50,357 nt of DNA from Gemmatimonadota bacterium (GCA_040002695.1 JBDUEA010000002.1:1-50357); one strand, 5' to 3'. Shown: positions 9,378 through 50,357, counted from the stretch's first letter. The notes: a model not told the origin generated them from the sequence alone. Translations and numbers: made by a program.

Positions 9378-9381
9378 ATAA

Positions 9382-25385: not shown

Positions 25386-25404
25386 TAGTTGCGAAAGAGC
25401 GAGT

Positions 25405-30192: not shown

Positions 30193-30198
30193 CGTTCC

Positions 30199-31560: not shown

Positions 31561-31576
31561 CAGTGACCCCGCCGGT

Positions 31577-33043: not shown

Positions 33044-33099
33044 CGTTCGCGTCAATTGATCGGAGGGAACGAACCGGAAAGTCGCAAGATAATCTCGAA

Positions 33100-35058: not shown

Positions 35059-35354
35059 CAGGGATGCTCGTCTGGATTCGCCGGAATCTTCAGCAGGACG
35101 ATCTCCGAATCACTCGGCGCGTGCAGTCCGAGACTCTGCTCGGCCAGCCTTCCGAGCGCCTGGCGACCGCTCAGTTCGCGGATGCGATGCTGCAGTTCGG
35201 CGCGCTGGGCCTCGAGTGCCGTCCGATTCTCCCGGACCTTCGTCAGCCGACCGCTGATGCTGATGGCGGAGGTCTGACGCGCCGTGACGATGACCGCCAC
35301 CACAAGAAAGAGCAGGAGCCACAGCATCACCCAGTGGCGGCCTTTAGCGCTCAT
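35058..35354 (-). CDS. ftsL: Cell division protein FtsL-like
   Basis: 98 aa with a single TM WVMLWLLLFLVVAVIV followed by a coiled coil (ENRTALEAQRAELQHRIRELS). It sits between rsmH and ftsI. Confidence 0.7.
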   Translation of the reverse strand: MSAKGRHWVMLWLLLFLVVAVIVTARQTSAISISGRLTKVRENRTALEAQRAELQHRIRELSGRQALGRLAEQSLGLHAPSDSEIVLLKIPANPDEHP

Positions 35355-36264
35355 GAGGAACGCGGAACACCCTCAGCTTTGCGCTGCGGGCGCGGGAGTT
35401 GGAGGCGACTTCGGCGGGAGCGGGCACGATCGGTTTCCGCGGCTCCAGAGTGCCGAGCGGACGGGCGCGGCAGGTGCAGATGGGTTGTTCCGGGGGACAG
35501 ACACAGGAGCGCGCCCAATCCTGAAAGGCGTGCTTCACCACTCGATCTTCCCCCGAATGATAACTGATTATCGCCAGCGCCCCATCAGGCATCAGGGCGT
35601 CGCGCCAGACCGGGAGCGCCGTGGATAGGCCGCCGAGCTCATCATTGACGGCAATGCGGACCGCCTGAAAGATGCGGGCGAAATCCGAGGGGCCAGACTG
35701 AGGACCCAGCACGGCGCGAATAGCGTTGACGAGGTCATCGCTCGTCGCGTGAGGACCCCGATCGCGGCGGCGGACTACTTCCCGGGCGAGACGCCCCGCC
35801 CGTCGCTCGTCGGCGTAGTCGGAGAAGATGTCGCGAAGCTCTTCCTCCGAGGCCTCGTTCAGCAGATCGGCGGCGCTCGTCCCCGTAGAGGACATGCGCA
35901 TATCGAGTGGAGCGCCCGGCCGGAAACTGAACCCGCGAGTCTCGTCGTCGAGCTGACGCGAGGAGACGCCGAGATCGAGCAAGATGAAATCGGGATGGAA
36001 GGCCTGAACCGCCTCGAGCACCGTGCGCTCGCCGAATGCGCCGAGCAGCAGGGTGACGTCTCGACCGGCCAGCCGGGTGCCCGCCACTTCGAGCGCTACC
36101 GGATCCCGGTCGATTGCGAGGAGCGTTACTCCAGTGTCCAGCAGCGACGCGGCATGCCCACCACCGCCAACCGTGCCATCCACGGCACGCCGGGCGCCGC
36201 GCGCCGCGTTGAGCACTTCACGGAGCAGCACTGGTTCATGATAGGTCGATGGGAGGTCGCTCAT
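35344..36264 (-). CDS. rsmH: 16S rRNA (cytosine1402-N4)-methyltransferase RsmH
   Basis: HEPVLLREV, GTVGGGGHA and DLGVSSRQLD motifs. 306 aa. It is the first gene of the dcw cluster. Confidence 0.93.
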   Translation of the reverse strand: MSDLPSTYHEPVLLREVLNAARGARRAVDGTVGGGGHAASLLDTGVTLLAIDRDPVALEVAGTRLAGRDVTLLLGAFGERTVLEAVQAFHPDFILLDLGVSSRQLDDETRGFSFRPGAPLDMRMSSTGTSAADLLNEASEEELRDIFSDYADERRAGRLAREVVRRRDRGPHATSDDLVNAIRAVLGPQSGPSDFARIFQAVRIAVNDELGGLSTALPVWRDALMPDGALAIISYHSGEDRVVKHAFQDWARSCVCPPEQPICTCRARPLGTLEPRKPIVPAPAEVASNSRARSAKLRVFRVPHER

Positions 36265-36336
36265 GGCGCCGGGTCCGGTCGGAAATGCAACACCCCGCCC
36301 GCAGGCGCGGACGGGGTGAGGAATCGAGTAAACCAG

Positions 36337-36411
36337 CGGGGCTGACGGGGCTCGAACCCGCGACCTCCGCAGTGACAGTGCGGCACTCTAACCAAGCTGA
36401 GCTACAGCCCC
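36337..36411 (-). tRNA. tRNA-Asp (anticodon GTC)
   Basis: The minus strand reads GGGGCTG-TA-GCTCAGCTTGGTTAGAGT-G-CCGCA-CTGTCAC-TGCGG-AGGTC-GCGGG-TTCGAGC-CCCGT-CAGCCCC-G. It folds as a cloverleaf with a 7-bp acceptor stem. No CCA is encoded. Confidence 0.9.
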
Positions 36412-36493
36412 CGGCGAAGAGCGCATCAATATAGGAACGCATCCCCCAGATTGGTAGGCCCGAACCGGCCTCAACACGACTGGCTCTTATGCC

Positions 36494-38218
36494 CTACTTG
36501 CAGAAGGCCTTCACCATGGACGCCGCGCGAACCTGGTACTTCTTGATGTAGTCCAGGTACTTCGCGTAATCCTCCGGCTTGGCAGCCGACTGACCCGCCG
36601 TCATAAACTTTTCCGCATCCGCCAGCGACGCCTGTTCGGCCTTTGCTCCCTCGCAGGACTTCGCCTTTTCGGTTCCCGCGTCGGTCTTCGTGACTTCGAG
36701 GAACGTGGTCAGGCCAAGATAGTAGTTCGCGAACGGCGCGATCTTGCTCGTGGGGCTCGCGACGGCGACGGCACGGTGGAGCATCGTATCCGCCCCGGCG
36801 AGATCCTGCGGTTCCTGCAGCAGCGGCAGGGCCGATGTCGTGATCAGCGTTGCCGCCGCATCCTTCGCCGCCTGATCGCCATACTTGATGACGTAGTCGA
36901 GGAAGGGCATCGCGTCTTTGGTCTTCGCGGGCTTCGCGTTGAGCAGGGATTGCGCGGCGGCCAACGCCGCCGGTACCTGGGTCGAATCGGTCTGCATGAG
37001 TTTCGACGTGAGGACGACGACGCTGTCGGTGAGCCCGCTCAGCGCGTAGGCGGTCAGCAGCTGCTTCTGCAGTTCGACGTTATTCGGATATTTCTTGACG
37101 CCCGCACTCGCCCACCGGAGGAGGCGCGAGGTGTCGGGTTTCTGGCTGGCCATGACCGTGATTTTGAGATAGAACGCGCTGTCCGCCTTCGCCGAGTCGT
37201 TCGCGATCACCTGCTCGAGCGCGTCCACTGCGCCGGCGTAGTCACCACGATAGACCCGGGCGTTGCTCAAGAGGTCGTAGAGGTCCGAATTGGTCGGATC
37301 GAGTTTGAGGCCCTCCTGGGCGGCCAGTTCGGCGGCTTCGGGATGGCCGTACTTGAGAAAGAGTTTGAACGCCTGTTCGCGGAGCGGCTGATTCGTCGGA
37401 GCGACGAGCAGCATGTGCTTGAGGGATTCGACCGTCTGATTCGTGTCACCGTGGGCTTCGTACCCGGCGGCGAGCAGGGTCCACGCGGGCAGACTCAGCG
37501 AGTCTCCGGCGACCGCGGCCAGCAGGTGATTCATCGCCTCGACGCTGTCATTCTTGGTCTTGAGGTCAAGTGAAAGCAGCCCGAGGCAGTAATGTGCCAG
37601 CCCATTCTTCGGCATCGTGGCCAGAGCCTTCTTGGCTGACGCGATCGCCTTGGGTGCCGCGGTGCTGCGCTGGTCCATGCACCCCTTCGCGTCCGCCGAA
37701 CTCTTGATGGCCGGCTGGAACGCGTCCGCCACTGCGGAGCTGAAATCCGCTGGAGTCTGTCCGGAGGCTTGCGTGAGATAGACGGTATTTCCCGCATCTT
37801 CATTGAGCCCGGCGAGTCGGGCCGCGATGTTGTATCGCCCGCCTTCCGCCTTGGTAATCGTGCTGCTCAACAGGTACCGCGACTGCATTGAGCTGCCGAA
37901 GCTGCGCTGGACGGGCGGAGCGAGAATCGCATCCGCAGGATATCCGAACTGCTTGAGCGCGTCATTCATCTGCGCCCTCGGAATGACGAAGAACTGCCCG
38001 CCGACGACCTTGTCCATCCGGGTTCTGAGACCATCTCCCACCGCCACGCTCGCAGCCGAGTCCTGCGCCACGAATGTGTACGGATTCGCGACCAGAAGCC
38101 GCGGTCCGCTCGACGCCTGCGCGGCCTGGGTGGGACGACGTGTGGGAATCTGGGAAAACAGGGTGCCGGCGGTCACACCGCTCAGCAGCGGGACAATGAA
38201 CAAACGGGCCAAGCGCAT
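36494..38218 (-). CDS. Secreted TPR-repeat protein, function unknown
   Basis: 574 aa with signal peptide MRLARLFIVPLLSGVTAGTLFSQ and multiple TPR-like helical repeats. It is unusually Lys-rich compared with its Arg-rich neighbours. Confidence 0.75.
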   Translation of the reverse strand: MRLARLFIVPLLSGVTAGTLFSQIPTRRPTQAAQASSGPRLLVANPYTFVAQDSAASVAVGDGLRTRMDKVVGGQFFVIPRAQMNDALKQFGYPADAILAPPVQRSFGSSMQSRYLLSSTITKAEGGRYNIAARLAGLNEDAGNTVYLTQASGQTPADFSSAVADAFQPAIKSSADAKGCMDQRSTAAPKAIASAKKALATMPKNGLAHYCLGLLSLDLKTKNDSVEAMNHLLAAVAGDSLSLPAWTLLAAGYEAHGDTNQTVESLKHMLLVAPTNQPLREQAFKLFLKYGHPEAAELAAQEGLKLDPTNSDLYDLLSNARVYRGDYAGAVDALEQVIANDSAKADSAFYLKITVMASQKPDTSRLLRWASAGVKKYPNNVELQKQLLTAYALSGLTDSVVVLTSKLMQTDSTQVPAALAAAQSLLNAKPAKTKDAMPFLDYVIKYGDQAAKDAAATLITTSALPLLQEPQDLAGADTMLHRAVAVASPTSKIAPFANYYLGLTTFLEVTKTDAGTEKAKSCEGAKAEQASLADAEKFMTAGQSAAKPEDYAKYLDYIKKYQVRAASMVKAFCK

Positions 38219-38257
38219 TAAAGAGCCTCCGTATCCGAACGGGCCTCGTGCATCTCA

Positions 38258-38279
38258 AGGCCACAGGGGGTTGTGGCCT
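38258..38279 (-). other. Perfect 8-bp hairpin immediately downstream of tRNA-Val (possible processing or terminator stem)
   Basis: AGGCCACA-GGGGGT-TGTGGCCT. No clear U-tract follows on the minus strand. Confidence 0.3.
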
Positions 38280-38283
38280 GATA

Positions 38284-38358
38284 TGGGCGAAGAGGGATTC
38301 GAACCCCCGACATCCTGCGTGTAAGGCAGGCGCTCTGAACCAGCTGAGCTATTCGCCC
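38284..38358 (-). tRNA. tRNA-Val (anticodon TAC)
   Basis: The minus strand reads GGGCGAA-TA-GCTCAGCTGGTTCAGAGC-G-CCTGC-CTTACAC-GCAGG-ATGTC-GGGGG-TTCGAAT-CCCTC-TTCGCCC-A. The acceptor stem pairs over 7 bp. Confidence 0.9.
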
Positions 38359-38418
38359 CAGACTGCCTTCACGCCCACTGCCATGAAGCAGTAGACATGC
38401 CACCGATGAGAACTGGTC

Positions 38419-38610
38419 CTACAGGGCGATACCGAGCGGAATCAGCACACAGTAGCCGAGTACCAGCAATAGCGCCGCTCCAGTTGTACCCCCGGACTGC
38501 AGCCAGTAGTACCCGGCAGCTAGGGAGACGACAGCGGACGCGAGAAGAAGGACATTTCGCCGGCCGAAGCGCAGCTGAGGGCCGCCGGAAGGCGAGGGGG
38601 AACTTGGCAT
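38419..38610 (-). CDS. Small two-TM membrane protein, hypothetical
   Basis: 63 aa with hydrophobic segments VLLLASAVVSLAAGYYW and AALLLVLGYCVLIPLGIAL. It lies 11 nt downstream of the preceding gene. Confidence 0.45.
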   Translation of the reverse strand: MPSSPSPSGGPQLRFGRRNVLLLASAVVSLAAGYYWLQSGGTTGAALLLVLGYCVLIPLGIAL

Positions 38611-38621
38611 AGGGGTTGAGC

Positions 38622-39608
38622 TTACACAACCCCGTCGTGCTGGTCAACCGGCGGCTCCGGATCTTCGACGATCACCCACCCATCGTTGAGCGCGGCACGA
38701 CGAGGCGCATCCGCCCGCCTCCGAGCCCACAGTATCCCTCCCAATCCGAACGCCACGATCGCCCAGAACCCACCTGCAAGGAGCCACGTGAGGATACCGT
38801 AACGTGTCTTGAGCGACCGCTGCCACTCCGTTTCGAAGCGACTCTCGGTCAGCCCCGTGGTCTCGACGAGCGCGGAATCGAAGTCCTCCCCTGCTTCGAG
38901 GTGACTCATTAGCGGGGCGATTGTCCCCGATGGATTACGTCGGGCAAGTTCCAGGACCGCCGACACCGCCAGCGCGTAGGCCGCATCCGCCGTGTTGGCG
39001 GAACCGCGGAGGAGCCCGTCGAGTTCTCTGAGCCCCGGACGGCTGCCGCTCGCCACGGCGAGATTGAGCTTGAGGGATTCGAGCCGGTCCCACTCATTGG
39101 CTCCCCACGACGCGTACCCTTCATCGAACCAGAGGGGCACCCGGACCTTGACCGCGTCATGCAGGGCGAGATGACCGAGCTCATGACGAAGCGTATGATC
39201 CAGCCCGTCGAGATCGGCGCGGAGAATGATGATGTGCGGGTCCGGGAGCGCGATGCCCGCCCCCCAGGCAGGCGCTCTCCCGCGGGAAATCCGGGCAAGC
39301 GCCGCAGCGTCCGCAACGACGATCAACCGAAATGGTGGCAGTACGCGTGTCCCGAGCCCAGGCCACGGAAGCGGCCGGTCGGCACGCTCCGCGAGCCCGA
39401 TTCCGAGTGCGAGGTGTGCGGGATCGGCGATGACCGTGATCCGGCCGACCTGCGTCTCGACGGCACCGGGCGCTATCGTTTGGGCTCGTGCGCCGGAAGC
39501 CCGGAGCAGGAGCATGCCTGTCAGGGGAATCGTTAGGAGGAGAGTCCGCGCGGCGGTTCCCCTCCCGACGCGATCAGGTCGAGCATTTCCTTGCAGCGCT
39601 TGCCCCAC
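38622..39608 (-). CDS. Exported HExxH zinc-metallopeptidase-like protein with a C-terminal TM anchor
   Basis: HELGHLALHD motif followed by WFDEGYASW (a possible third ligand Glu). It has a signal-like N-terminus and a C-terminal TM ILTWLLAGGFWAIVAFGLGGILW. The start is uncertain: candidates are 39608, 39569 (GTG) and 39515 (ATG). Confidence 0.6.
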   Translation of the reverse strand: MGQALQGNARPDRVGRGTAARTLLLTIPLTGMLLLRASGARAQTIAPGAVETQVGRITVIADPAHLALGIGLAERADRPLPWPGLGTRVLPPFRLIVVADAAALARISRGRAPAWGAGIALPDPHIIILRADLDGLDHTLRHELGHLALHDAVKVRVPLWFDEGYASWGANEWDRLESLKLNLAVASGSRPGLRELDGLLRGSANTADAAYALAVSAVLELARRNPSGTIAPLMSHLEAGEDFDSALVETTGLTESRFETEWQRSLKTRYGILTWLLAGGFWAIVAFGLGGILWARRRADAPRRAALNDGWVIVEDPEPPVDQHDGVV

Positions 39609-40417
39609 GGATTGAACTTGTTCGCCTTGTAACCCTCGGTCCAGGTCTGGAGCGCAGGCTCACGCTCGCCGAGAAACCAGTCCACTCGCCCGAGCTCGAA
39701 GTACGCCTCGATGAGATTGGGACCGAGTTGGACCGTCTTCTGGAAGAAGGTTTGCGCGTCCTCGAACATCTCGCGCTCCAGGTAGACGAGCCCCAGGTAA
39801 TAATGCGCGTACAACGTCGCCTTGCGATCGTTGTCGAGCCTGATCGCCTTGGACAAATGCTCGATCGCCTCTCCGAAGATCCGCTTCTTGAGACAAATGT
39901 ACCCGACGTTGATGCGGGCGAGCGAATTCGCGGGCTCTTTCATCAGCACCTTGGAGAACGTCGTCAGCGCGTCATCGTACTCTTCATGCAGCATCTGGGC
40001 CCAGCCCAGTAGCGACTGCGCCTGGATATCCGCCGGAGAAAGCGTGAGCGCCCTGTTGAGACTCTGGATCGCCGCGGCATAATCGCCGAGGGAAATCAGG
40101 CTCCAACCCTTCTCGATGTAGGTGGAGGCGCCAAGGTGATCCGCGTGGACGACCGGTCTCGCCCCAGTGAACTGTGGCGCCTGCGCCGAATCCGTCGACG
40201 CGGCGAGCTGCTTGTAGCGCTCCACGAGTCCACGGATATCCTCCTTGAGTTGGGTCAGCTCGGTGAGCGAGCCATCGACCCGCTTGAAGAAGGAAATGAT
40301 CTCGCGCTTGATCGCTTCCCGTTCGGGGGTGGTGCCCGCCTGCTCCAGGCGGGCGACGATTTCCTGGTACTGCGCCCTGAGCCCCGCGACCGGCGAATCC
40401 GGAACCGGCGCTGTCAT
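39533..40417 (-). CDS. Cytoplasmic TPR-repeat protein with an N-terminal coiled coil
   Basis: 294 aa with TPR repeats (GDYAAAIQSLNRALTLSP, YDDALTTFSKVLMKEP, FGEAIEHLSKAIRLD, FEDAQTFFQKTVQLGP). 4-nt overlap with cheW. Confidence 0.75.
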   Translation of the reverse strand: MTAPVPDSPVAGLRAQYQEIVARLEQAGTTPEREAIKREIISFFKRVDGSLTELTQLKEDIRGLVERYKQLAASTDSAQAPQFTGARPVVHADHLGASTYIEKGWSLISLGDYAAAIQSLNRALTLSPADIQAQSLLGWAQMLHEEYDDALTTFSKVLMKEPANSLARINVGYICLKKRIFGEAIEHLSKAIRLDNDRKATLYAHYYLGLVYLEREMFEDAQTFFQKTVQLGPNLIEAYFELGRVDWFLGEREPALQTWTEGYKANKFNPWGKRCKEMLDLIASGGEPPRGLSS

Positions 40418-40875
40418 GACGCTGCCTCGGCAAGCGCGAGCCGCTCGGTCGAGCTGAACAGGCGGCCCGCGTTGAGTACGACGATCGTCCGGCCCGGCCG
40501 GCTGATGATTCCGGAGATGTAGTCCGCCGAAAGCCCGCGCACCATCGGCGGCGGTGCGGAAATGGTGCGGGTATCGACACGAAGCACTTCCAGTACCTGG
40601 TCAACCACTACCGCGATGCGCTGCCCTTCGAGCTCCAGGACCATCTGCCTGGTTTCCTCGCGAAGCCTGGCTTCGACACTGAGCCGTTTGCGCAGATCGA
40701 TCACCGGTACGACGCCACCGGCGTACGGCACCACACCTTCGAGGTAGTCGGGAGACTTGGGCAGGCTCGCGGGCTTCGAATACCGGAGGATCCGCTCGAC
40801 CTGAAAAATGTTGAGCGCGAACTCCTGGCTCCCCACCCGGAAGGTCACGAACTGCAATTCGTCTGCGGTGGTCAT
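40414..40875 (-). CDS. cheW: Chemotaxis coupling protein CheW
   Basis: 153 aa. FVTFRVGSQEFALNIFQVERIL...GVVPYAGGVVPVIDLRKRL is a classic CheW fold signature. Confidence 0.9.
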   Translation of the reverse strand: MTTADELQFVTFRVGSQEFALNIFQVERILRYSKPASLPKSPDYLEGVVPYAGGVVPVIDLRKRLSVEARLREETRQMVLELEGQRIAVVVDQVLEVLRVDTRTISAPPPMVRGLSADYISGIISRPGRTIVVLNAGRLFSSTERLALAEAAS

Positions 40876-41303
40876 GAGATCGGTTTAGCCTCCGCGAGGC
40901 GCTCGGCCAGCGCACTCAGGTTCAGAATCGGGATCAGGCCTTCGGGACGGCGAACGACGGATGTCGCCCACGGCATCGATTCGCCGGGTGGGACAGGAAG
41001 CCGTTCTCCATCGGATACAAAATCGGCTTCATCGACTTCCAGACAGATCGAGAGCCCCTGGACATCGACGAGCACGCCAGCGGCGGTCGGGTTCTCGCCT
41101 ATCGGGCCGCCCCGGAGCAGCGCCCCGAGATGAAAGATCGGCACCAGGTGACCCCTCGCGAGCGTGACGCCGCGCATCGATGGTATGACGGACGGTACCG
41201 GGTGCACCGCTCCGAGATCCTTCACTTCGATCACGTCCTCGAGCGGAAGTCCGACGCTCAGCCGGTCGACCCGGACAAGCAGGAACGAGTTCGCGCCGCT
41301 CAT
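40872..41303 (-). CDS. Second, divergent CheW-like protein
   Basis: 143 aa. [21 protein letters not shown]...[21 protein letters not shown] matches the CheW pattern but has diverged from its neighbour. Confidence 0.8.
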
Positions 41304-42370
41304 CTGCGCGGAAGCCGGGTCAACAACTCAGTGACCCTCGGTGCGATCGCGGTGAGTGAGAGCACTTCGTCGGCCCCGCCACTCTGTGCGGCGGCATTGG
41401 GCATTCCGAAGATGGTGGAACTTTCCCGATCCTGAGCAATCCCGATGCCGCCCGCATCGTGAATCGCCCGAAGTCCCAGTGCGCCATCCCGGCCTAGGCC
41501 GGTGAGGACGACTCCAATTGCGGATCCGTTGAAAATTCCCGCGACCGAATGAAAGAGCGGGTCCGCGGCGGGCCGGACTCCCCAGACCTGAGGCTCCTTA
41601 TCCAGCACGAGCCGCAGGCCACCGTCTCCATTGGTGACGCGCATGTGGAAATCGCCGGGGGCGATATAGGCAGTATCGGCATTCACGGGAGAACCATGCT
41701 CCGCCTCCACTACCAGCAGCTGACTCTGCGCCGCGAGTCGCTCCGCCAGACTCCGCGTGAAACGAGGCGGCATGTGCTGGACGACGAGGACGGCGGCCCC
41801 CTGCCCTGTGATCAGTTGCGGTATCAGCTCCGCGAGTGCCCGCGGCCCTCCGGTCGAGGCGGCCACCGCGACGCAGGCACCGGCCTCGTTGGGGGATCGG
41901 TCCTGCTTCTCGATCGAGCGATGGCGCGGCCGGGCCAGCATCGGCACCCGGTAGATATCCGCGGCGCGCGCGGCGCGAAGCGCATTGATGAGACGAGGCC
42001 CGATGCGTACGGCGTCCTGCCGGACGCCATCGTCTTCCTTTTCCACAAGTTCAACGGCGCCCAGCTCGAGAGCCCGAATGGTGAGGGCGGATCCGGCCCC
42101 GGCGTAGGAGCTTACCACGACGATCGGCCTCGGGCTCTCGGACATGATGTAACCGATCGTGCTGATCCCGTCGACGAGTGGCATTTCGAGATCCATCGTG
42201 ACGAGATCGGGTTGGAGCTCGTGCACTTTGGCGAGCGCTTCCATCCCGTTCGCGGCGGTCCCGACCACGCGGAACTGGCCCGACCCGTTGATGATCTGCG
42301 AAATCAGCCGGCGGAAGAACAGGCTGTCATCCACGACGAGGACGCCGGGGATGCTAGAGGAGCTGTTCAC
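41300..42370 (-). CDS. cheB: Chemotaxis response regulator protein-glutamate methylesterase CheB
   Basis: Receiver domain ([12 protein letters not shown]...[14 protein letters not shown]) plus a methylesterase domain ([26 protein letters not shown]). I prefer the GTG start at 42370, because the ORF-track start at 42445 overlaps cheD by 92 nt. Confidence 0.9.
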
Positions 42371-42839
42371 CGTGCGCCACCGATTTAATTTCGATCCGGT
42401 TGAGGCGAACATGGAACCGTACGGAGCGGCCGAAATCTCCTCCAACCGATTCCCCGATGACCGGGATGCCCTGCGAGTTGAGGACTTCCCTGGTGGCTAC
42501 CAGATTCCGCTCACCCATTTGGATCGACCCCGGCGGCGCCAGGCCGGCGAACATGCTCGCTCCACCTACGAGACGGGCGGTCAGCCGTCCCGGAATCGCG
42601 CCGAGAAGGCTCATCTCGGCAACCAGGGCGGGGACGGCCGATTGAGGAAACTTCGCGGGATTCTCGGTGCCCCGACTCAGTGATCGAGATGGAAGCAGGA
42701 TATGCGCGAGACCACCGACCTTGCTCTCGTTATCGAACAGCAGAATGGCGACGCAGCTGCCGAGGCCGAGCGTGACGAGAATGTCTTCCCCGCTGCCGGC
42801 CTTGAGATCCGCCACCCGCACCATCAGTTCCCGACTCAT
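42354..42839 (-). CDS. cheD: Chemoreceptor glutamine deamidase CheD
   Basis: [14 protein letters not shown] with the catalytic Cys, GLAHILLP and GGASMF motifs. 161 aa. Confidence 0.9.
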
Positions 42840-43660
42840 TCGACGGGCCGCCGATAAATGCGTTCGCGCGCGTCCACCAGTTCGAGACGATTGCGCGACG
42901 GACCAAAGATCGTCTCCACTTTGCCGAGCAGCAGGTAACCTCCAGGGCGAAGCGCGTCATGGAAGCGCTCGAGCAGCGCTTCCTGCGTCGGCCGATCGAA
43001 ATAGATCACGACGTTCCGGCAGGTGATGAGATCATACGGAGCGCCGGGAGCCGCTTCCCGAGTCAGATCATTCCGGGTGACGCGCACTCGGGCGCGTAGT
43101 TCCGGCGTAACGCTCCAGCCATCGGCGCCATCGGAGACGAAGTATTTCGAGATGAGTTCGGGTGGCGTTTCCGCCAGCGAAGGCGTCTGATAGAATGCGG
43201 CTGCGCACCGTTCCAGCGACATCCGGTCGATATCCGTGGCGTCGATCGCGTACCGGTCACGCCACTGCGGATTGGAGCGCAATCCGGCCTCGGCCAGCAG
43301 GATCGCGATCGTGTACGGCTCTTCTCCCGACGAGCACCCGGCACTCCAGACGCGGACCCGTCCGTGCAGGCGCTCGAAGAGGTCGCTGATGGCGGTCTCG
43401 GAGACCCGAGCCCATGCCTCCCGGTTCCGGAAGAACTTGGTCACGTTGATGGTCAGCACATCGAAGAGCGATGCCATCTCTGCCGGAGTCTTCGACAGCA
43501 CGCGGCGGTACTCCTCGAAGGTATGAACTCCGCACGCGCGCATGCGAACCGCGATGCGCCGGCGGAGGCATTTTTCCTTATACGCGCCAAGAGTCATTCC
43601 CGTGCCGGCGGAAATGACGGTGGCAAGCGCGGCAAAGCTCGCTTCATCCTCGGCGCTCAC
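42836..43660 (-). CDS. cheR: Chemotaxis protein methyltransferase CheR
   Basis: TKFFRN, VWSAGCSSGEEPYTIA and CRNVVIYF SAM-methyltransferase motifs. 274 aa. Confidence 0.92.
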   Translation of the reverse strand: MSAEDEASFAALATVISAGTGMTLGAYKEKCLRRRIAVRMRACGVHTFEEYRRVLSKTPAEMASLFDVLTINVTKFFRNREAWARVSETAISDLFERLHGRVRVWSAGCSSGEEPYTIAILLAEAGLRSNPQWRDRYAIDATDIDRMSLERCAAAFYQTPSLAETPPELISKYFVSDGADGWSVTPELRARVRVTRNDLTREAAPGAPYDLITCRNVVIYFDRPTQEALLERFHDALRPGGYLLLGKVETIFGPSRNRLELVDARERIYRRPVE

Positions 43661-45276
43661 ACGCTTGCATCCAGCGTATCGAGATTGGCCCGCGCCAGCT
43701 GGTGTCCGGGGTTGAGCTCGGTGACGCGCTGCCAGCAGTATCGCGCCCGCTCGCGGTCTCTGCGTTTGTACGCAATGTTGCCGAGCTTGAAGTAGAGATC
43801 ATCTCCGAGATCGGGACTCAGCTTTGCGGCGCGTTCATAGGCCTCCGCAGCCTCCTCGTAGCGTCCGGCCCGGTAATGCAGGTCCGCGAGGTTCTTCGAG
43901 ATCTGCGGCATGGTCGGTTCTTCCTGCAGCGCGCCGGTGAGCAGCGCCTCGGCGCCTTCGAGATCGCCGCTCAGCTCCAGGAGGACAGCCAGGTTGTTCC
44001 GCAGCACCGCATTTCCCGGATACGCCGCCACGCCGTCCCTGCCGGCTGCAAGTGCGCCGTCGATGTCTCCGGCCCCGGCGGCCGCGAGCGCGCTCGCCCA
44101 GTACCAGGTGGCCGGCACCGGCCGGTCTCCCAGCAGCTCCTTCGCGCGGGCGAGTCTGCCCGAGGCGACTTCGGCATCGTTCCGCTTGAGCGCGATGATT
44201 CCCCATCCGAGCATCAGCCGCGCGTCATCACGGGAGCGACTGACCGCCTCGCCGTAGGCGGTCTCGGCTTCGGAAAGGCGGCCGAGCTGCTCGAGAGCAA
44301 AGGCGAGATTATGCAGGGCGGCGGGGCGGCTTCCTCCCTTGTCCACCGCCTGGCGCAGGGCATCCACCGCCTCCAGCCAGCGCGCCTGCTTGAGCGCGAT
44401 CAGGCCGAGGTAGAAGGGTGCACTGGCCTCGGCGGGCCGGAGCTCGGCGACCCGGCGGAACTCGCGTTGGCCCTCGTCGAGCATGCCGGTCTTGTAGAAC
44501 GCGATGCCGAGGTTTCGATGCTCCTCGACGCGGACGTCGTTCACCTTGGGTGCGGTGGGCGTCGCGGAAGTGCCGATCCGCCGCACAAATCCGGCGGTGA
44601 TCAATCCATATAGCGCTTTCCCCACCTCGAACTCCACGAGGCCCGAGTCTTCCACGACCTGGTGCACGTCCCGCGCGCCGTCGAGCAGCAGGAGGATGCG
44701 TTCCTGTTCGGGGCTCAAGCCAGCGTCGGTACCGTTCGTGCGGTCTCGATCCGGCGCGAAGATCAGGTCGAAGGTGGGGATCTTCTTCTCGACCAGGCTC
44801 CATTCGTCGACCCGTCGCGCGCCTTCGAGCAGCAACGACTCCGGATTGATCTGGACGAGGAAATCCTGCTGCTCAGGCCGCACCCCGGCTTCGAAGTTGA
44901 AGGTTCCCGACGTCCACGTGAACAGGAAGTAGACGGCCTCCTCGATCTGGAGGCGCATGTACTCTTCCAGCTCCGACCGCGCGATTGCCCCGATGTTCAC
45001 CAGGATCTCGCCCAGCTTCTGTTCCCGGTGCTCTTCCTGGAGCTCGATCGCGCGCTCGAGCTGCTCCCGGCTGATGCGGTTGCTCTTCGACAGCAGGTCA
45101 CCCAGGCGATCCCGTCGATTCACAATGGATGCGTAGCAGATCCACCCCTCGTCGAAATAGATGTAGCCGAAGTTGTGACGATCGGCCACGGCGAGGCAGC
45201 CGGTTTTCTTCCCTAGCGCGAGGAGCTGGAGAACGTCCGGAAGACTCGCTTCCTTGAGACTGCCCTTGATCGCCAT
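43657..45276 (-). CDS. DUF4388 (PATAN-like) domain protein fused to a long TPR array
   Basis: N-terminus [49 protein letters not shown] is a DUF4388 signature. It is followed by about 8 TPR repeats. 539 aa. Confidence 0.8.
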   Translation of the reverse strand: MAIKGSLKEASLPDVLQLLALGKKTGCLAVADRHNFGYIYFDEGWICYASIVNRRDRLGDLLSKSNRISREQLERAIELQEEHREQKLGEILVNIGAIARSELEEYMRLQIEEAVYFLFTWTSGTFNFEAGVRPEQQDFLVQINPESLLLEGARRVDEWSLVEKKIPTFDLIFAPDRDRTNGTDAGLSPEQERILLLLDGARDVHQVVEDSGLVEFEVGKALYGLITAGFVRRIGTSATPTAPKVNDVRVEEHRNLGIAFYKTGMLDEGQREFRRVAELRPAEASAPFYLGLIALKQARWLEAVDALRQAVDKGGSRPAALHNLAFALEQLGRLSEAETAYGEAVSRSRDDARLMLGWGIIALKRNDAEVASGRLARAKELLGDRPVPATWYWASALAAAGAGDIDGALAAGRDGVAAYPGNAVLRNNLAVLLELSGDLEGAEALLTGALQEEPTMPQISKNLADLHYRAGRYEEAAEAYERAAKLSPDLGDDLYFKLGNIAYKRRDRERARYCWQRVTELNPGHQLARANLDTLDASV

Positions 45277-47264
45277 CAGCGCAGATCCTCGATCACACGG
45301 TCAGCGACATCCGGCCAGTCCCAGACCGTCTTTTCCCGGCTCCGGACGCTGCCGAGCGGAGACACGATGCCACTCGTCCGGCCGGAATTTGTACGCCGGA
45401 CCGGCGCGGCCGGACTGCCTTCCAGCAGCCGCCGCGCGATGGTGAGGCTGGGTCGAACCTGCTGAGCGTCAGCCGCCTGGACTACGCGCTGCACCAGTCC
45501 CTGCAATCCACGAATCGAATCCGCCGGACGACTGGACAGGTACGCGACCAGTTCCTCATCCTGATTTTCGAGGCGTGCGGAGAGCAGCCGCTCGACAATG
45601 GCGACACGAATTTCCCGCTCCGGCATCGGCAATTCTACGACCAGGCCGCCCTCGAGGCGCGTGATCAGGCGCGGCTCGACGCCTTCGAGCTCCTGCAGCG
45701 GAAGCGCACAGGTGAACACCATCTGGCGACCTGCCTCCTGCAGGAGGTTGAAAAGCCAGAAGAGCTCCTCCTGCGTCCGTTCCTTGCCGGCGATCAGGTG
45801 GATATCGTCGAGCAGCAGCGCGGTGATGCGCCGGTAGCGCGCGCGCCACCACGTGACCCGGTCGCGGTCGATGGCCTTGATGAGCTCATCGATGAAGTCC
45901 TGTGCGTTGAGGCAGGCGACGATCGACTCGGCCGCATGCGCGAGCTCATTCCCGATGCCGTGCAGCAAATGAGTCTTGCCGACACTGGTGCCGCCGGTGA
46001 TCACCAGCGGATTGTATTCGTTCCCCGGCGTGGCGATGACAGCCGCCGCCGCACGCAGGGCCATCCGGTTGCTCGCGGCTTCGACGAACTCCTTGAGATC
46101 CCAGAAGGGTGAGGGACCGGGAGGTGGGCTGGTGCCCAGTCGTGCGCGATCGACAAGCGCCCGCGCCTCCTCGACCGCGTCAGGATCACGGAAGAGCGGG
46201 AGTCCGGGCAGCGCCGGATCGAGTTCAGTCGCTTCGGCCTGCAGCAGTCGCAGGCGTTCGATGTCCTTGACGAATTCCTGCACCACCGCCTCAGGATCCA
46301 CCGGCGACTGCTCCTCCAGCAGCGCATCGAGGCGCTGAGTCCGGTAGCCCTCCCCTTCCCAGCGGAGAATCGCTTCAGCGACGCGGGCTTTCCATGCGTC
46401 CACCTGCTGCGTTACCGTGTTCACGATTTCGGAGAGAAAGGAGCCGAACTCGTCGGGGGCGGGCTCCGCACGTGAGGCACCCGGGCTCGCGACACCGGTG
46501 ACGACGCTTCCTTCGACGCCCGCCGGTGCGCGCAGTGCCGCCGGAATCGACTTGCCCAGGACCGCGCGCGCCTGCGTTGCATCGAGCGGCGTATCGCTGA
46601 CGGCCTGGAAGGCGATCAGGCGATTGAGCGCGCCGATGAGTTCGCGGATGCTGTTGATCGCGAGGGAGGCGACCGTCTCGATGACGCCGGGTCCGAAATC
46701 GGCACGCCGCTCCTCCGCCTGGCGGCGCAGAATGGCCACGCGAGTCTCGTAGTCCGGCGCCGAGATATCGATGACGAGCCCGCCCGCGAAGCGCTGGATG
46801 AGCCGCTCGTCGAGCGCCTCGATTTCGTTCGGTGGACGGTCACTCGAGAGTACGATCTGGCGTCCGGAACTCAGCATCGTGTTCGTGAGCCTGAGCAGCT
46901 CCGCCTGCATCTCCCGCCGATGCGTGAGAAACTGGATATCGTCCACCAGCAGCAGATTGACCTCGGTGTATCGCTTGCGATACACGTCTCCCTGCCCCGC
47001 GGCGATCGCCGCGTGGAACGACTCGACGAAGTCATCGAGGGTGAGGTATTCGACCGCAACCTGGGGATTGATCACCGTCGCGGCCTGCCCGATCGCCATG
47101 AGCAGATGCGTCTTCCCCAGCCCGGACCCGGCATAGATGAAGAGCGGGTTGTAGACTGATCCCGGTGATTCCGCGACCGCCTTCGCTGCGGTTGCCGCAA
47201 GACGATTTGCGGAACCGACGACGTAATTCTCGAAGCGGTAGCGAGGGTTCAGCTGAATCGTCAC
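45276..47264 (-). CDS. Tandem DnaA-like AAA+ ATPase (two DnaA domain-III modules; no domain I/II and no domain IV)
   Basis: Module 1 (aa 5-235): [51 protein letters not shown], Walker [24 protein letters not shown] and [13 protein letters not shown]. Module 2 (aa 400-640): [46 protein letters not shown] and [13 protein letters not shown]. The C-terminal 50 aa show no DnaA-box-binding helix-turn-helix. Confidence 0.85.
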
Positions 47265-47863
47265 GGCGTCGGCGCCCCGGCCGCGAGCCGTTTGAGCACC
47301 AGCTCGGAAATCCCTTTCAGGGTCTCGAATACGCCGGCGCCGCGCAGGGCATCCGCGCCGAAGCTTCGGTGCGGACGGAAATTCAGCGCCTCATCGAGAT
47401 CCGCCGGAGTCAGGGTCAGATCGGACGGCAGGTCCTGCTTGTTGTATTGCAGGACGATCGGAAACTGGCGGACGTCGACGCCCTGACCCAGCAGATTGGC
47501 CTGGAGATTCTGCATACTTTCGATGTTATCGTCGAGGCGCCGGGCCTGACTGTCCGCGACGAACACCACGCCGTCGGTGCCCTGCAGCACCAGTTTTCGG
47601 GTGGCGTTGTAATAGACCTGGCCCGGGACGGTATAGAGTTGGAAGCGCGTCGTGAACCCCGAGATGATCCCGAGGTCCAGCGGCAGAAAATCAAAGAACA
47701 GGGTCCGGTCCGCCTGCGTGGCCAGCGAGACCATGCGTCCGCGACGGGTCTCCGGAACTCTGCCGTAGATGTAATGCAGATTCGTGGTCTTGCCGGACCG
47801 CCCCGGTCCGTAATATACGATCTTGCAGGTGATCTCACGGGTCGTGAAATTCACGAGAGACAT
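47261..47863 (-). CDS. mglA: Ras-like GTPase MglA (mutual gliding motility protein A family)
   Basis: 200 aa. [33 protein letters not shown]...[11 protein letters not shown]...[33 protein letters not shown]...LQYNKQDLP is near-colinear with Myxococcus MglA, including the PGQ switch-2 motif and NKxD. The longer 317-aa ORF extension is rejected. Confidence 0.92.
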
Positions 47864-47867
47864 TTGG

Positions 47868-48329
47868 TTACCGTCCGAAGAGCGCGCGAAGGCTCGCGTT
47901 GAGCTCCCGCTCGAAATTTTCCGCCAGCACTTCTCGCTTGGGAGCTTCGCGCGGTGCCGCCGCGGCCAGCTCCTCCACCATCTGTTCGAAGAACAGCTGC
48001 ACGATTCCCAGCGTCGTCTCGCCGCCGAACACCACGAGGCCGATCCACGGTCCGCGCGGCGTCTCGAACCACGCCAGGAAGTGACCCTGTCGCTGCCCCT
48101 GGTGCACCAGCACGCGAAACGGTCGCCATCCCATCTGCCGCGCGAGCTCACTCGACGAGGCGACGATGCCGGCCCCGAGTGCCGCGGCGGACATGAGATC
48201 GAGCGCGCCGGCAAAACCGTGTTGCGCCACGACCTGTCCCGAAAGCGTCATGAGCAGCGTCAGTCGCGCGGACGATTCAGCGACGAAGGTATTCAGCGGT
48301 CCGGCGACCCACGGTTCGATCGCCTTCAT
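47868..48329 (-). CDS. mglB: Roadblock/LC7 protein, MglB-like (candidate MglA GAP)
   Basis: 153 aa immediately upstream of mglA, as in Myxococcus. Pattern [16 protein letters not shown]...[23 protein letters not shown]...[15 protein letters not shown], plus a C-terminal tail ending LNASLRALF. Confidence 0.75.
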
Positions 48330-48679
48330 CAGGCGAGGCGCTCGGCGGCGCGAAGCGTCTCCAGCCGCGCGAGTCCGATGGGGACTTCACGGCCCGCGAG
48401 GATCACCAGCAGAAGGTCTCCCGCTCCCGCCGCCACGAGCAGTGCGCCGTCTTCCCCTTCGAGATGAATGAAATGCGGGGCCTGTCCGGCTGCTGCCCGC
48501 GTGATTCCCTCGACCCGTTTCGCCAGGCTTCCCGCGAGTGCGGCGAGCGCACGACCCTTCACGCCTTCCATCAGCGATTCCGCGACCACCACGCCGTCCT
48601 GTCCGGCGACGACCATCGCGCCATGCACGCCGCGAACGCGCGTCAGCGCATCCACAACGGCGACGTAGTCGACGCTCAT
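48329..48679 (-). CDS. Roadblock/LC7 domain protein (second paralogue)
   Basis: 116 aa from MSVDYVAVVDALTRVRGVHGAMVVAGQDGVVVAES...LAALAGSLAKRV...LLVAAGAGDLLLVILAGREVPIGLARLE. ATGA overlap with the upstream gene and 1-nt overlap with mglB. Confidence 0.7.
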   Translation of the reverse strand: MSVDYVAVVDALTRVRGVHGAMVVAGQDGVVVAESLMEGVKGRALAALAGSLAKRVEGITRAAAGQAPHFIHLEGEDGALLVAAGAGDLLLVILAGREVPIGLARLETLRAAERLA

Positions 48680-49545
48680 CGAACCAGCTCCAGCCACTGC
48701 CGTGCGGCCTTGGCTGCCCGCTCGGCAAGGAAGCCGACCTGCCCGACGGGCAGGTCGGCGGGACGCGCCGCGATGAGACAGGTATCCGGCGTCGGCTGCA
48801 CCAGCGAGAAATTCCATTCACCCGTCTCCACCGAGACGCTCTTCCATTCCCCCAATCCGAGAATTCGCGCCGCGCGTGCTGCCTCGCGCGCCGCTCCAGC
48901 GCCACAGGCGCTGATTTCTTCGCTTATATCAGCACCGTCAATGCTGCGGAATTCTCCCCCGAGGCGCAGCCCGCTTCCATCTACCAGGAGCAGCATATTC
49001 AGGGCATTCTCGACTCCGGCGAAGGGACCCTGCTCGTCGACGCCCTCGTCCGCGGACGCGAACGAGAATACCGGCGCGGCACTCGGCGTCGGGGGGACCG
49101 TCGACACAGCAGCTGACACCTCCGGCTCGCTCTGAGCGGGCGAGAGTCGCCCGCCTTCGACCAGCGCCAGTGCGGACAAAATGCCTTCGTCATCCGGAAC
49201 GATGGCCGCGGCCGCGCGAAGGTGTTCGCGCGCGTGCTCCGCGTCTCCGGCCTGGAAATAGAGAAAGCCGATTCCCTTGAGTGAGCCGAGGTGGTTGGGA
49301 TCGAGACGCAATGCCATGTCCCATTCATCGAACGCGCTGGCGAAGTCCCGCCGATCGGCGAGTACTCGCGCGTACAGATCGTGCGCATCGGGGAGATGCG
49401 GATATCGATTCAGTCCCGCGAGCGCCACCTTCTGCGCCGCGTCGAGCTGGCCGCGCCGCCGGAGCGCCTCGCCAAGACGCAGGAATACCAGGCTGGCGGG
49501 GTCGGCGGCCAGCGCCGCGGTAAGGCCGCGAATATCCTCGGTCAC
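48676..49545 (-). CDS. TPR - Roadblock/LC7 fusion protein
   Basis: 289 aa. The N-terminal half has TPR repeats (GQLDAAQKVALAGLNRYP, DFASAFDEWDMALRLDP, GDAEHAREHLRAAAAIVP). The C-terminal half reads NMLLLVDGSGLRLGGE...ISACGAGAAREAARAARILGLGEW..VSVETGEWNFSLVQPTPDTCLIAARPADLPVGQV, which is Roadblock-like. Confidence 0.65.
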   Translation of the reverse strand: MTEDIRGLTAALAADPASLVFLRLGEALRRRGQLDAAQKVALAGLNRYPHLPDAHDLYARVLADRRDFASAFDEWDMALRLDPNHLGSLKGIGFLYFQAGDAEHAREHLRAAAAIVPDDEGILSALALVEGGRLSPAQSEPEVSAAVSTVPPTPSAAPVFSFASADEGVDEQGPFAGVENALNMLLLVDGSGLRLGGEFRSIDGADISEEISACGAGAAREAARAARILGLGEWKSVSVETGEWNFSLVQPTPDTCLIAARPADLPVGQVGFLAERAAKAARQWLELVR

Positions 49546-50357
49546 GCGCCACCTCGCAGCGCGACGTCAATCGTCAGCGCAGCCTGACGCACCCGCTCGA
49601 TCAGTGGCATCTCCGCCTCCTCTTCCGGTGGCATGAGTCCCAGATTCTTCCATTGATCCCAGACTTCCACCGCTTCACGGAACCGGCCGCACGCGGCGAG
49701 ACTGAGCCCCAGCACCCGGTGGGCCGCCGGAGAAGTGGGATCGAGTTCGACGGCGATCCACAGCGAATCCGCAGCCTCCTCGTAGCGCGACGACGCGAGG
49801 AGTGCTCGGCCATAGACAAATTGCGCGAGGGGCTGGTGCGGATGCGCGGCGATCGCCCGCTCGGCCGCAGCGATCGCCGAGGCGGGGTCCCCGACGGCCA
49901 GATGACGCTCGGCCTCCTGAAGCAGCCGGGCCAATTCGCCACCGCTGGTGCCCTGGCTGCTGCGGCGCGCGGGATCCTCGAGATGAATGATACCCGCGCT
50001 GGTCAATCCGAAAACGGTCTTCGCGACATCGAACTCGGGCCGGCCCAGCTGGCTTGCGATGTCGCGTACGCTGCGTTCGCTGTCGACGACGGCAAGCACT
50101 TCCCATTCCGCCGGCAGCAGGTCGAGCGGCGCGGTTCCCTCTCCATTCGACGTCAGTCGGGGAATGAGCCCGAGATGGGTGATCCGTTTCTCGATACGGG
50201 ACCACTCGTCGATCCGGCGCGCCGCCTCCATCAGCAGGACCGCCGTTGGAATCCGAAAGGTCGCTTCGGTTTCCCAGTGCTCCCGGCCACGCTCCTCGAA
50301 GGCGAAGTATCCCTCCGACCAGCCCATCAGCTCGAAGATGACTTCCTCGACCTGGGC
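49542..50357 (-). CDS. Second DUF4388-TPR protein (partial; N-terminus beyond the right edge)
   Basis: The frame stays open to the window end. AQVEEVIFELMGWSEGYFAFEE...LLMEAARRIDEWSRIEKRI aligns with QIEEAVYFLFTWTSGTFNFEAG...LLLEGARRVDEWSLVEKKI of the 539-aa paralogue. The C-terminus has TPR repeats. Confidence 0.7.
   Translation of the reverse strand, partial: AQVEEVIFELMGWSEGYFAFEERGREHWETEATFRIPTAVLLMEAARRIDEWSRIEKRITHLGLIPRLTSNGEGTAPLDLLPAEWEVLAVVDSERSVRDIASQLGRPEFDVAKTVFGLTSAGIIHLEDPARRSSQGTSGGELARLLQEAERHLAVGDPASAIAAAERAIAAHPHQPLAQFVYGRALLASSRYEEAADSLWIAVELDPTSPAAHRVLGLSLAACGRFREAVEVWDQWKNLGLMPPEEEAEMPLIERVRQAALTIDVALRGGA

Follow-up and report, generated by a model that had tools for sequence, protein, structure and literature searches.

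A cluster of chemosensory, MglA/MglB and tandem DnaA-like ATPase genes conserved in Gemmatimonadota

Gene content and arrangement of the cluster

A stretch of 50,357 nucleotides (nt) of DNA from a Gemmatimonadota bacterium (GCA_040002695.1 JBDUEA010000002.1:1-50357), referred to here as the window, carries at positions 38622-50357 a cluster of 14 genes that brings together an MglA/MglB polarity module, PATAN (DUF4388) proteins with tetratricopeptide repeats (TPR), a tandem DnaA-like ATPase (DnaA2) and a set of chemosensory (Che) genes. All lie on the minus strand, as do the other features located in the window below, and they are numbered G1 to G14 in the direction of transcription. Their order and domain content were originally predicted from the sequence alone; all the domain calls were verified using Pfam, with hhalign for the C-terminus of G2, and the all-minus-strand layout with G1 truncated by the edge of the window was confirmed on recomputed reading frames.

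Starting at the 5′ end of the cluster (located at the upper edge of the window), G1 (49542-50357) encodes a PATAN-TPR protein with its 5′ end cut. It matches Pfam DUF4388 over profile positions 74-122 only (E = 2.2e-9), together with TPR. The orthologues have 381-382 amino acids (aa), and a full-length one (L002:6613-7758, in one of the related loci described below) matches DUF4388 with E = 1.3e-31. G2 (48676-49545) continues with N-terminal TPR (Pfam) and a C-terminal Roadblock-like domain. The Roadblock domain is missed by Pfam in G2 itself; its orthologues give weak Robl_LC7 matches, and their C-terminal 125 aa align with the G3 family with an hhalign probability of 95.7% (E = 1e-8). G3 (48329-48679) encodes a stand-alone Roadblock/LC7 protein of 116 aa (Pfam Robl_LC7, 1.9e-9), with the Roadblock protein 7f8m_A as its top match in the PDB (3.5e-6).

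The polarity module follows. G4 (47868-48329) encodes an MglB-type Roadblock protein of 153 aa, matched by phmmer to Myxococcus xanthus MglB (6h5b_B, 3.6e-7) and to chain 1j3w, deposited as 'Giding protein-mglB' (8.5e-5). Its match to Pfam Robl_LC7 has an E of only 0.0098, and against the NCBIfam MglB equivalog NF052242 it scores 31.1 bits (2.2e-7), below the cut-off of 200; either G4 is a divergent orthologue or NF052242 is a narrow model. G4 is predicted to be the GTPase-activating protein (GAP) of MglA. The mglA gene (G5, 47261-47863) lies directly downstream, with a gap of 4 nt between the end of G4 at 47868 and the start of G5 at 47863. It encodes a small Ras-like GTPase of 200 aa that is about 63% identical to M. 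xanthus MglA (5ymx; E = 3.7e-71 over residues 1-197) and also matches 3t12_A, deposited as 'Gliding protein mglA' (E = 1.2e-67). The P-loop GxxxxGKT, the arginine of DRTLFFDF (equivalent to R53 of M. xanthus) and YTVPGQV are kept and align with the M. xanthus residues. Switch II reads TxxGQ, with threonine instead of aspartate and the catalytic glutamine present. The roles of the P-loop, the intrinsic arginine and switch II are as described in PMC3199381 and PMC3000849. On this sequence evidence G5 is assigned as a Group 1 MglA-family GTPase, a true MglA, and the locus is taken to encode a genuine MglB-MglA pair plus two extra Roadblock units (G3 and the C-terminus of G2).

The strand then continues through G6 (45276-47264, DnaA2) and G7 (43657-45276, PATAN-TPR), both described in the next section, into the Che genes. 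G8 (42836-43660) encodes the methyltransferase CheR (Pfam CheR 3.2e-51, CheR_N 1.7e-10), G9 (42354-42839) encodes CheD (2.7e-24), and G10 (41300-42370) encodes CheB, with a receiver (REC) domain (Response_reg 1.1e-19) and a methylesterase domain (CheB_methylest 5.6e-60). A divergent CheW-like protein (G11, 40872-41303; Pfam CheW 1.2e-13) and CheW (G12, 40414-40875; 6.5e-34) complete this block. G13 (39533-40417) encodes a TPR protein of 294 aa (Pfam TPR), which belongs to the conserved core, and the final gene, G14 (38622-39608, start uncertain), an HExxH peptidase (Pfam Peptidase_MA_2, 3e-11) with a signal-peptide-like N-terminus and a hydrophobic segment towards the C-terminus, and is conserved 3′ of G13 in relatives.

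The genes are tightly packed. Recomputed by script, the gaps from G1/G2 to G6/G7 are −4, −4, −1, +4, −4 and −1 nt, and those from G7/G8 to G12/G13 are −4, −4, −17, −4, −4 and −4 nt. An overlap or a gap of at most 4 nt had been noted at each junction down to about 39533. Of all 13 junctions, 11 consist of an overlap of 1 or 4 nt (of the types ATGA, GTGA or TGATG) or of a 4-nt gap, and the other two hinge on the start codon chosen. The G9/G10 junction is −17 nt with the start of CheB at 42370, or about +10 nt if the GTG about 27 nt downstream is used. The G13/G14 junction is −76 nt with GTG at 39608, −37 nt with GTG at 39569 and +17 nt with ATG at 39515, and the equivalent junction in relatives is a gap of 100-150 nt. 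The borders between modules are bridged by overlaps, of −4 nt at both MglA/DnaA2 and PATAN-TPR/CheR. A pattern scan of 38622-50357 found no terminator-like sites on the minus strand. A scan for sigma-70 promoters gave two sites, on the wrong strand and in a number no higher than expected, and is uninformative. Since relatives with proteins no more than 35-90% identical show the same coupling and order, the arrangement is more than the chance layout of one genome.

The DnaA2 ATPase and the PATAN domains

Pfam finds Bac_DnaA twice in the 662-aa DnaA2 protein encoded by G6 (3.5e-96). The first AAA+ domain (AAA1, residues 4-240) corresponds to domain III of DnaA. It is followed by a disordered linker (240-272) and a confidently modelled helical middle domain (272-377). 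The second AAA+ domain (AAA2, about 400-615, or more narrowly 412-612) is DnaA/Hda-like, after which the chain passes through a further disordered section (621-646) into a short C-terminal helix. The mean predicted local distance difference test score (pLDDT) of the AlphaFold (AF2) model is 85.7. AAA1 superimposes on domain III of Bacillus subtilis DnaA (8bv3) with a template modelling score (TM) of 0.95 and a root-mean-square deviation (rmsd) of 1.4 Å (Foldseek), and in a search of PDB sequences residues 4-243 are 45-50% identical to the same domain (8bv3, 8btg; E 7e-58). The suggestion that this ATPase derives from the replication initiator is supported by the match. Neither domain IV (PF08299, DnaA-box binding) nor domain I (PF11638) was matched in G6 or in its family, whereas genuine DnaAs matched both; domain II is absent from G6.

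The motifs of the family were counted in 30 diverse homologues, 31-60% identical. All 30 retain the Walker A lysine and one Walker B aspartate (D108 and D486) in each domain. The second Walker B aspartates are kept in 28 and 27 homologues, as are the sensor II arginines (28 and 27). The box VII arginine is kept in 25 homologues in AAA2 (R536) and in only 14 in AAA1 (R158). This retention of the arginine finger in AAA2 and its frequent loss in AAA1 suggests an internal ATPase pair, formed from AAA2 to AAA1. The two most DnaA-like members (P0165 and P0299) keep the box VII sequence RLRSRFEGGL in both domains.

Two further hallmarks are family-specific, DEFGxFLSE in the middle domain and REKxVWxWPxxxDRLIEE at the C-terminus. 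In G6 the C-terminal peptide comprises residues 642-660 (45279-45338), of which K645, W650 and P651 are nearly invariant and the end, DRLIEE, is acidic. It is preceded by the disordered linker and is recognisable also in lineages free of MglA. TPR-docking tails typically look like this, with an acidic, conserved peptide at the C-terminus after a disordered linker, which points to a TPR protein as the partner; the peptide probably docks in its groove.

Two other identities for G6 were considered and rejected. The protein scores 475.7 bits against the NCBI DnaA equivalog TIGR00362 (cut-off 343.9) and passes only by the sum of its two domains; lacking domains I and IV, it is not the DnaA of this genome. 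The summed score explains why many JGI records carry the name 'chromosomal replication initiator protein DnaA', and the DnaA labels on the tandem family are a systematic mis-annotation. Nor is it Hda: it has two AAA+ domains, its score against TIGR03420 (163.2 bits) is below the cut-off of 194.8, and no Hda-type clamp-binding motif (QL[SD]LF) was recognised by eye at the N-terminus, which is a normal start of DnaA domain III.

G7 encodes a PATAN-TPR protein of 539 aa (Pfam DUF4388 3.1e-35, with TPR), 53-73% identical in all related Gemmatimonadota loci. Its residues 4-160 cover positions 1-122 of the PF14332 profile. The original prediction correctly called the DUF4388-TPR proteins and missed an MshEN-type motif in the helical insertion of their PATAN domains. 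In the AlphaFold model of residues 1-245 (pLDDT 80.8) helices 58-119 are inserted between strands. Residues 57-108 match NCBIfam NF053729 ('c-di-GMP_motif, MshE-related') with 41.6 bits (7.6e-11; cut-off 38), and the full-length G1 orthologue, in which the insertion lies at L002:6787-6948, scores 36.6 bits, just under that cut-off. The 24-residue MshEN motif is RLGxx(L/V/I)(L/V/I)xxG(L/V/I)(L/V/I)xxxxLxxxLxxQ (PMC5013675). Two copies are found 30 residues apart in every G7 orthologue. Every G1 orthologue has the second copy, the first being degenerate. The G7 insertion superimposes on Vibrio cholerae MshE with bound cyclic di-GMP (c-di-GMP; 5htl_B) with an rmsd of 1.2 Å over 57 columns at 33% identity. 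From motif and model, the insertion of the G1 and G7 PATAN domains is identified as an MshEN-type tandem motif (G7 residues 57-110; 44947-45108), and both are predicted to bind c-di-GMP. PATAN goes unmentioned in the paper that describes MshEN (PMC5013675), and all that a preprint on PATAN notes is that some of these proteins are annotated with a GspE_N domain (bioRxiv 10.1101/2021.06.11.447907).

A Foldseek search with the PATAN model (44542-45276) gave no significant global match. The best matches were the Nprl2/Nprl3 chains of GATOR1, which are not significant (E 0.015-0.13, TM about 0.3). GATOR1 is the GAP of Rag GTPases, and Nprl2/Nprl3 contain longin domains. That PATAN might be a fold that regulates small GTPases is offered as a lead only, from the model.

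Conservation of the locus and its separable layers

All cluster proteins were compared by tblastn with a panel of 13 loci, the taxon labels being those of the depositors of the metagenome-assembled genomes (MAGs). The conserved core has the order TPR(890)-PATAN/TPR-TPR/Roadblock-Roadblock-MglB-MglA-DnaA2-PATAN/TPR-TPR-peptidase, and it is found in order wherever the contig is long enough, with proteins 35-91% identical across the 12 related loci. MglA is the most conserved member (73-91% in 11 of the 12); DnaA2 evolves faster (35-69%). G13 is 57-79% identical in nine of the 11 related loci with a match, 50% over a truncated match in L015 and 36% in L009. All the panel loci but one are labelled Gemmatimonadota. 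The exception is a contig of an 'uncultured Acidimicrobiia bacterium' (L010, CAXMUQ010000073.1) with the full cluster and a DnaA2 57% identical; judged by what it encodes and by this identity, it probably belongs to Gemmatimonadota and was mis-binned.

The gene content beyond the upstream edge of the window was read from relatives, in orthologous contigs located via the DnaA-like protein. L003 and the 902-kb contig L002 both have the order of a rluB-like gene, CheW, CheY, CheA, CheC, an 894-aa protein and G1 (382 aa), and then as in the window, followed after the cluster by a tRNA region, the TPR protein with a signal peptide and rsmH. The upstream CheW-CheY-CheA-CheC set is present also in L006, L007, L012 and L013; the window itself holds two CheW genes. 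The gene 5′ of G1 in relatives encodes a protein of about 890 aa with TPR repeats throughout, and the idea that the 894-aa protein is a divergent methyl-accepting chemotaxis protein (MCP) was ruled out by the extension of the TPR over its whole length. The original prediction proposed looking for CheA, CheY and an MCP beyond this edge: the first two are there in relatives, but none of these clusters encodes an MCP, and the gene in that place is the giant TPR protein. Neither the window nor the 10-kb flanks examined in relatives contain an MCP signal domain. With the upstream set and the giant TPR protein of the relatives, the cluster amounts to a complete Che pathway minus the MCP, in about 20 genes, of which Che genes stand on both sides of the Mgl/DnaA2 core. 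The window would hold the 3′ two-thirds of this supra-operon of about 20 genes, which is read as vertically inherited in Gemmatimonadota.

The surroundings are conserved too, with ileS-lspA-rluB upstream and the division/cell-wall (dcw) cluster downstream. In the window a conserved tail (36291-38358) with two tRNAs, a TPR protein and a hairpin follows the cluster, and the dcw cluster stands directly after it. The elements of the tail are tRNA-Val (38284-38358, ARAGORN), a TPR protein with a signal peptide (36494-38218, Pfam), tRNA-Asp (36336-36411, ARAGORN) and, 3′ of the latter, a strong terminator-like hairpin at 36318-36291 with a 12-bp stem that includes 10 GC pairs (pattern scan). The dcw cluster (20884-36264) comprises rsmH, ftsI, murE, murF, murD, murC, ftsA and ftsZ, and its adjacency is kept in each Gemmatimonadota locus of sufficient length. 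The remaining genes of the window are housekeeping genes. Between the peptidase gene and tRNA-Val there is a short open reading frame (38369-38647); relatives have a called gene of 61-63 aa at the same spot, and these are counterparts by position only (L002:18681-18872, L004:15378-15563).

Parts of the cluster are lost in particular lineages. In L004, where DnaA2 is 35% identical, the Mgl/DnaA2/PATAN core is kept with CheY and CheC, and CheA, CheW, CheR, CheD and CheB are absent; G13 is present also in this Che-poor locus. L014 lacks CheB and CheW, and G11 is missing from L003, L006, L013 and L015. In L009 (a Gemmatimonadales MAG) the MglA slot (9385-9987) holds a GTPase 37% identical and the adjoining MglB is 63% identical; this locus has a giant TPR protein cut down to 383 aa and no CheR/D/B/W block. 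The adaptation block of L002 (14447-16666) looks damaged, with a CheD of 119 aa, a CheB without its receiver fused to a CheW domain and an uncalled gap of 900 nt, which could reflect assembly frameshift errors or real decay.

A profile scan of genome contigs gave at least 10 tandem DnaA2 loci and at least 70 ordinary dnaA loci among the matches listed, and an exhaustive profile-free search of 1.8 billion representative proteins returned full-length tandem homologues down to 33% identity. The most divergent of these (P0178) has a named relative at 66% identity, 'Candidatus Cloacimonetes bacterium 4572_55'. The distribution outside Gemmatimonadota is drawn from three further contexts on few contigs, an under-sampled set. 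Two contigs labelled Cloacimonetes (L086 and L088), with a guanine-cytosine (GC) content of 45-49% compared with about 65% in the window, have the order CheW-CheY-CheA-(AAA_22 ATPase)-long CheW-CheC-TPR(823)-PATAN-DnaA2, in which PATAN (241-248 aa) has no TPR. No MglA, MglB or Roadblock genes are present on these contigs. Their CheY is 68% and their CheC 53% identical to the proteins of the Gemmatimonadota cluster, from which the two strings are taken as orthologous. The segment between CheA and CheC (L086:4035-5923, L088:3743-5493) thus holds an extra AAA_22/STAND-like ATPase of 272 aa and the long CheW, whose 310-344 aa include about 175 aa of N-terminal extension. On a third contig, labelled Gemmatimonadetes (L089, 50% GC; 3765-12094), a giant TPR protein of 867 aa stands next to DnaA2 without Che, PATAN or Mgl genes. 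Two bactofilin genes stand a few genes upstream of this pair, and a 200-aa protein without a Pfam match comes after it.

The patterns of L004, L086/L088 and L089 tie DnaA2 first to the TPR, PATAN and CheY/CheC genes, and not to MglA. Judged by gene content, the constant partner of DnaA2 is the giant TPR protein, and PATAN with CheY/CheC comes next. The locus is built in layers: (1) the giant TPR protein and DnaA2; (2) PATAN and CheY/CheC, usually with CheA/W; (3) a Gemmatimonadota cassette of TPR-Roadblock, Roadblock, MglB and MglA with the second PATAN-TPR protein; and (4) an optional set of CheR/D/B/W. The Mgl/Roadblock genes are on this comparison read as an insertion specific to Gemmatimonadota. 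The mgl, dnaA-like and che genes had been taken as a single unit. They form one compact block here, and the neighbourhood is conserved in related genomes with its order kept; the unity does not extend further, the layers being separable in L004, L009, L014, L086, L088 and L089.

A proposed pathway and its relation to known systems

CheA phosphorylates CheY, CheC dephosphorylates the phosphorylated form (CheY~P), and CheR, CheB and CheD adapt the receptors. GTP-bound MglA marks a pole and recruits effectors, several of which are TPR proteins; MglB serves as its GAP, with modulation by Roadblock paralogues. MshEN motifs bind c-di-GMP, and DnaA-type AAA+ domains oligomerise on ATP with the arginine finger supplied in trans. 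From the gene content and the models we propose, and give an even chance of being right, a chemosensory and c-di-GMP pathway that would act via TPR/PATAN scaffolds and an ATP-driven switch made of DnaA domain III on the MglA polarity module. Receptors encoded elsewhere would drive CheA. CheY~P, reset by CheC, and c-di-GMP, bound at the PATAN insertions, would converge on a cytoplasmic scaffold of the giant TPR and PATAN(-TPR) proteins, of which the tandem DnaA-III protein would be the ATP-dependent switch or assembly element, with the site of AAA1 completed by AAA2 of the same chain. The output in Gemmatimonadota would be the nucleotide state or the location of MglA, with MglB as GAP and the G2/G3 Roadblock pair as a possible co-regulator by analogy with MglC and RomY. 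The pathway may decide which pole hosts an active polar machine or active polar growth and division.

The occurrence of CheY, CheC, giant TPR, PATAN and DnaA2 together in the Cloacimonetes-labelled lineage of much lower GC argues for this pathway, as does the pairing of giant TPR and DnaA2 where all else is gone (L089). Also in its favour are the overlaps across module borders, the order shared by the 12 related loci, the Che genes on either side of the Mgl/DnaA2 core, the intact catalytic residues of MglA, the conserved ATPase motifs and C-terminal peptide of DnaA2, and the c-di-GMP motif. In M. xanthus the Frz Che system acts on MglA/MglB, and PATAN genes recur near mglA and mglB (PMC4316618, citing Makarova 2006). 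Che-like systems have PATAN-REC regulators as outputs, and these bind the pilus motor (bioRxiv 10.1101/2021.06.11.447907).

Several observations weigh against the pathway. Mgl occurs without CheA/R/B/D (L004) and Che-DnaA2 occurs without Mgl (L086, L088), so that history may account for part of their co-location. The locus contains no gene for an MCP, pili, flagella or gliding, and no RomR/RomX or FrzZ-like genes were seen there, a genome-wide search for RomR/RomX not having been made. The inter-domain geometry of the AF2 model of G6 is unreliable (predicted TM-score, pTM, 0.48), and both the TPR docking and the internal AAA pair are proposed from conservation. The AAA2 residue matching R245 of Escherichia coli DnaA, which we take to be a contact to single-stranded DNA (the DNA-contact B-motif), is kept in only 15 of the 30 homologues, although these include the window protein and the members most like DnaA, so that DnaA2 may have a role involving nucleic acids. 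The adjacency to dcw is suggestive but may be positional inertia.

Among the alternatives, the one rated highest is that of independent modules kept together by descent. Che would then serve ordinary (e.g. flagellar) chemotaxis, Mgl a separate polarity and DnaA2 with TPR something other, the whole being an old compact block beside dcw. The separate gain and loss of layers in the six loci named above agrees with this, and the conserved ileS-lspA-rluB and dcw flanks indicate strong positional inertia in the phylum. Yet the arrangement is interleaved, with Che genes flanking the core on both sides and overlaps of 1-4 nt spanning the module borders; CheY and CheC stay with the core after the loss of the kinase in L004, and the CheY-CheC-TPR-PATAN-DnaA2 string persists in a second deep lineage of very different GC. 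We consider this explanation possible but improbable.

A role in replication or the cell cycle we find somewhat harder to accept, and unlikely. Here DnaA2 would be an Hda-like regulator or an anti-initiator that uses its DnaA-type AAA+ interfaces to join oligomers of genuine DnaA or to bind single-stranded DNA, coupling environmental and polarity signals to replication initiation or chromosome organisation. The close match of AAA1 to B. subtilis domain III, the box VII sequences of P0165 and P0299, the retained R245 equivalent, and the conserved position beside dcw (in L089 beside bactofilin genes) are what such a regulator might show. Set against these are the lack of domains I and IV and of a recognised clamp motif, the sub-cut-off Hda score, the loss of the AAA1 arginine finger in about half of the family, and the nature of the constant neighbours, which are signalling and scaffold proteins and not replication genes.

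Twitching taxis by type IV pili of the Pix/Tax kind, in which PATAN would bind PilB, MglA would sort pilus ATPases and DnaA2 would be a minor accessory, is very unlikely. In its favour, PilB1 of Synechocystis is bound by PATAN-REC regulators, and GspE_N/MshEN-like segments are frequent in PATAN proteins (bioRxiv 10.1101/2021.06.11.447907). The MshEN motif of this cluster is also of the kind that pilus ATPases carry N-terminally, and M. xanthus MglA activates pili via the TPR protein SgmX. Against it, neither the window nor the 10-kb flanks of any locus contain a pil gene, and DnaA2, far from being an accessory, persists longest of the whole set.

In a bolder reading, DnaA2 with its obligate giant TPR protein and a c-di-GMP-binding PATAN might represent a class of chemosensory output device not recognised before. 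It would be an oligomeric switch of the initiator type, driven by ATP and under the control of CheY~P and c-di-GMP, that captured MglA/MglB in Gemmatimonadota and may act on DNA or DnaA, linking sensing and polarity to replication or division. We consider this reading improbable.

In Myxococcus the route from the chemosensory system to MglA is still debated and its parts are scattered; the present locus gives a candidate parts list in one conserved operon, and offers the TPR/PATAN scaffolds, the extra Roadblock proteins, a c-di-GMP input and an AAA+ switch as candidate missing links. It shows the ATPase module of a replication initiator reused outside replication. It also suggests a c-di-GMP site for the long-unexplained helical insertion of PATAN; if this is general, cyanobacterial PatA-type regulators become candidate c-di-GMP receptors. 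Cultured Gemmatimonas species should make these ideas testable.

The original prediction knew of no described system of this composition, and a literature search likewise found no description of a single operon combining Che, MglA/MglB, PATAN-TPR and a tandem DnaA-III ATPase, of a tandem DnaA-III family with fixed giant TPR and PATAN partners, or of a c-di-GMP site of the MshEN kind in the PATAN insertion. Partial likenesses are several. V. cholerae MshE (PDB 5HTL) shares the tandem 24-residue motifs and the four-helix unit that superimposes at 1.2 Å and 33% identity, but here the unit lies inside a PATAN domain instead of leading a secretion or pilus ATPase N-terminally, and the spacer is 6 residues instead of 5. 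From the DnaA/Hda clade AAA1 has the full domain III fold and motifs (Walker A/B, box VII and sensor II), and AAA2 is DnaA/Hda-like. DnaA2 differs in having two copies of domain III in one chain, with the family-specific helical domain between them and the conserved C-terminal peptide, in lacking domains I, II and IV and the clamp motif, and in a genomic context of signalling, not replication.

The actinobacterial conservons (CvnA-D) also combine a sensor kinase, an MglB-type Roadblock protein and an MglA-family GTPase in one operon (PMC4316618, PMC13343842). Their kinase is a membrane histidine kinase and not CheA, their GTPase belongs to MglA Group 2, and they are without PATAN, TPR, Che adaptation and AAA+ genes. 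In the cyanobacterial Pix/Tax systems (PATAN-REC) a Che-like kinase pathway is linked to the polarity of surface motility, with PATAN as the likely output or adaptor. Here, in contrast, PATAN is fused to TPR instead of a receiver, CheY is separate, MglA/MglB and DnaA2 are present, and no pilus genes are nearby.

A further parallel is the Frz and MglA/MglB/RomR system of M. xanthus, which likewise has a CheA/CheY-type pathway with CheR/CheB, a Group 1 MglA, the Roadblock GAP MglB, a further Roadblock paralogue (there MglC) and TPR proteins as partners of MglA (there SgmX). In M. xanthus, however, frz, mglBA, mglC, romR and sgmX are separate loci, and mglA is not near its partner genes (PMC4316618), whereas here there is one coupled operon, which also encodes PATAN-TPR proteins, CheC/CheD and the tandem DnaA-III ATPase and in which RomR/RomX and FrzZ-like genes were not seen. 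Control of MglA/MglB by a Che system is already known from Frz, and it is the role of the DnaA2 and TPR component that could be new in kind.

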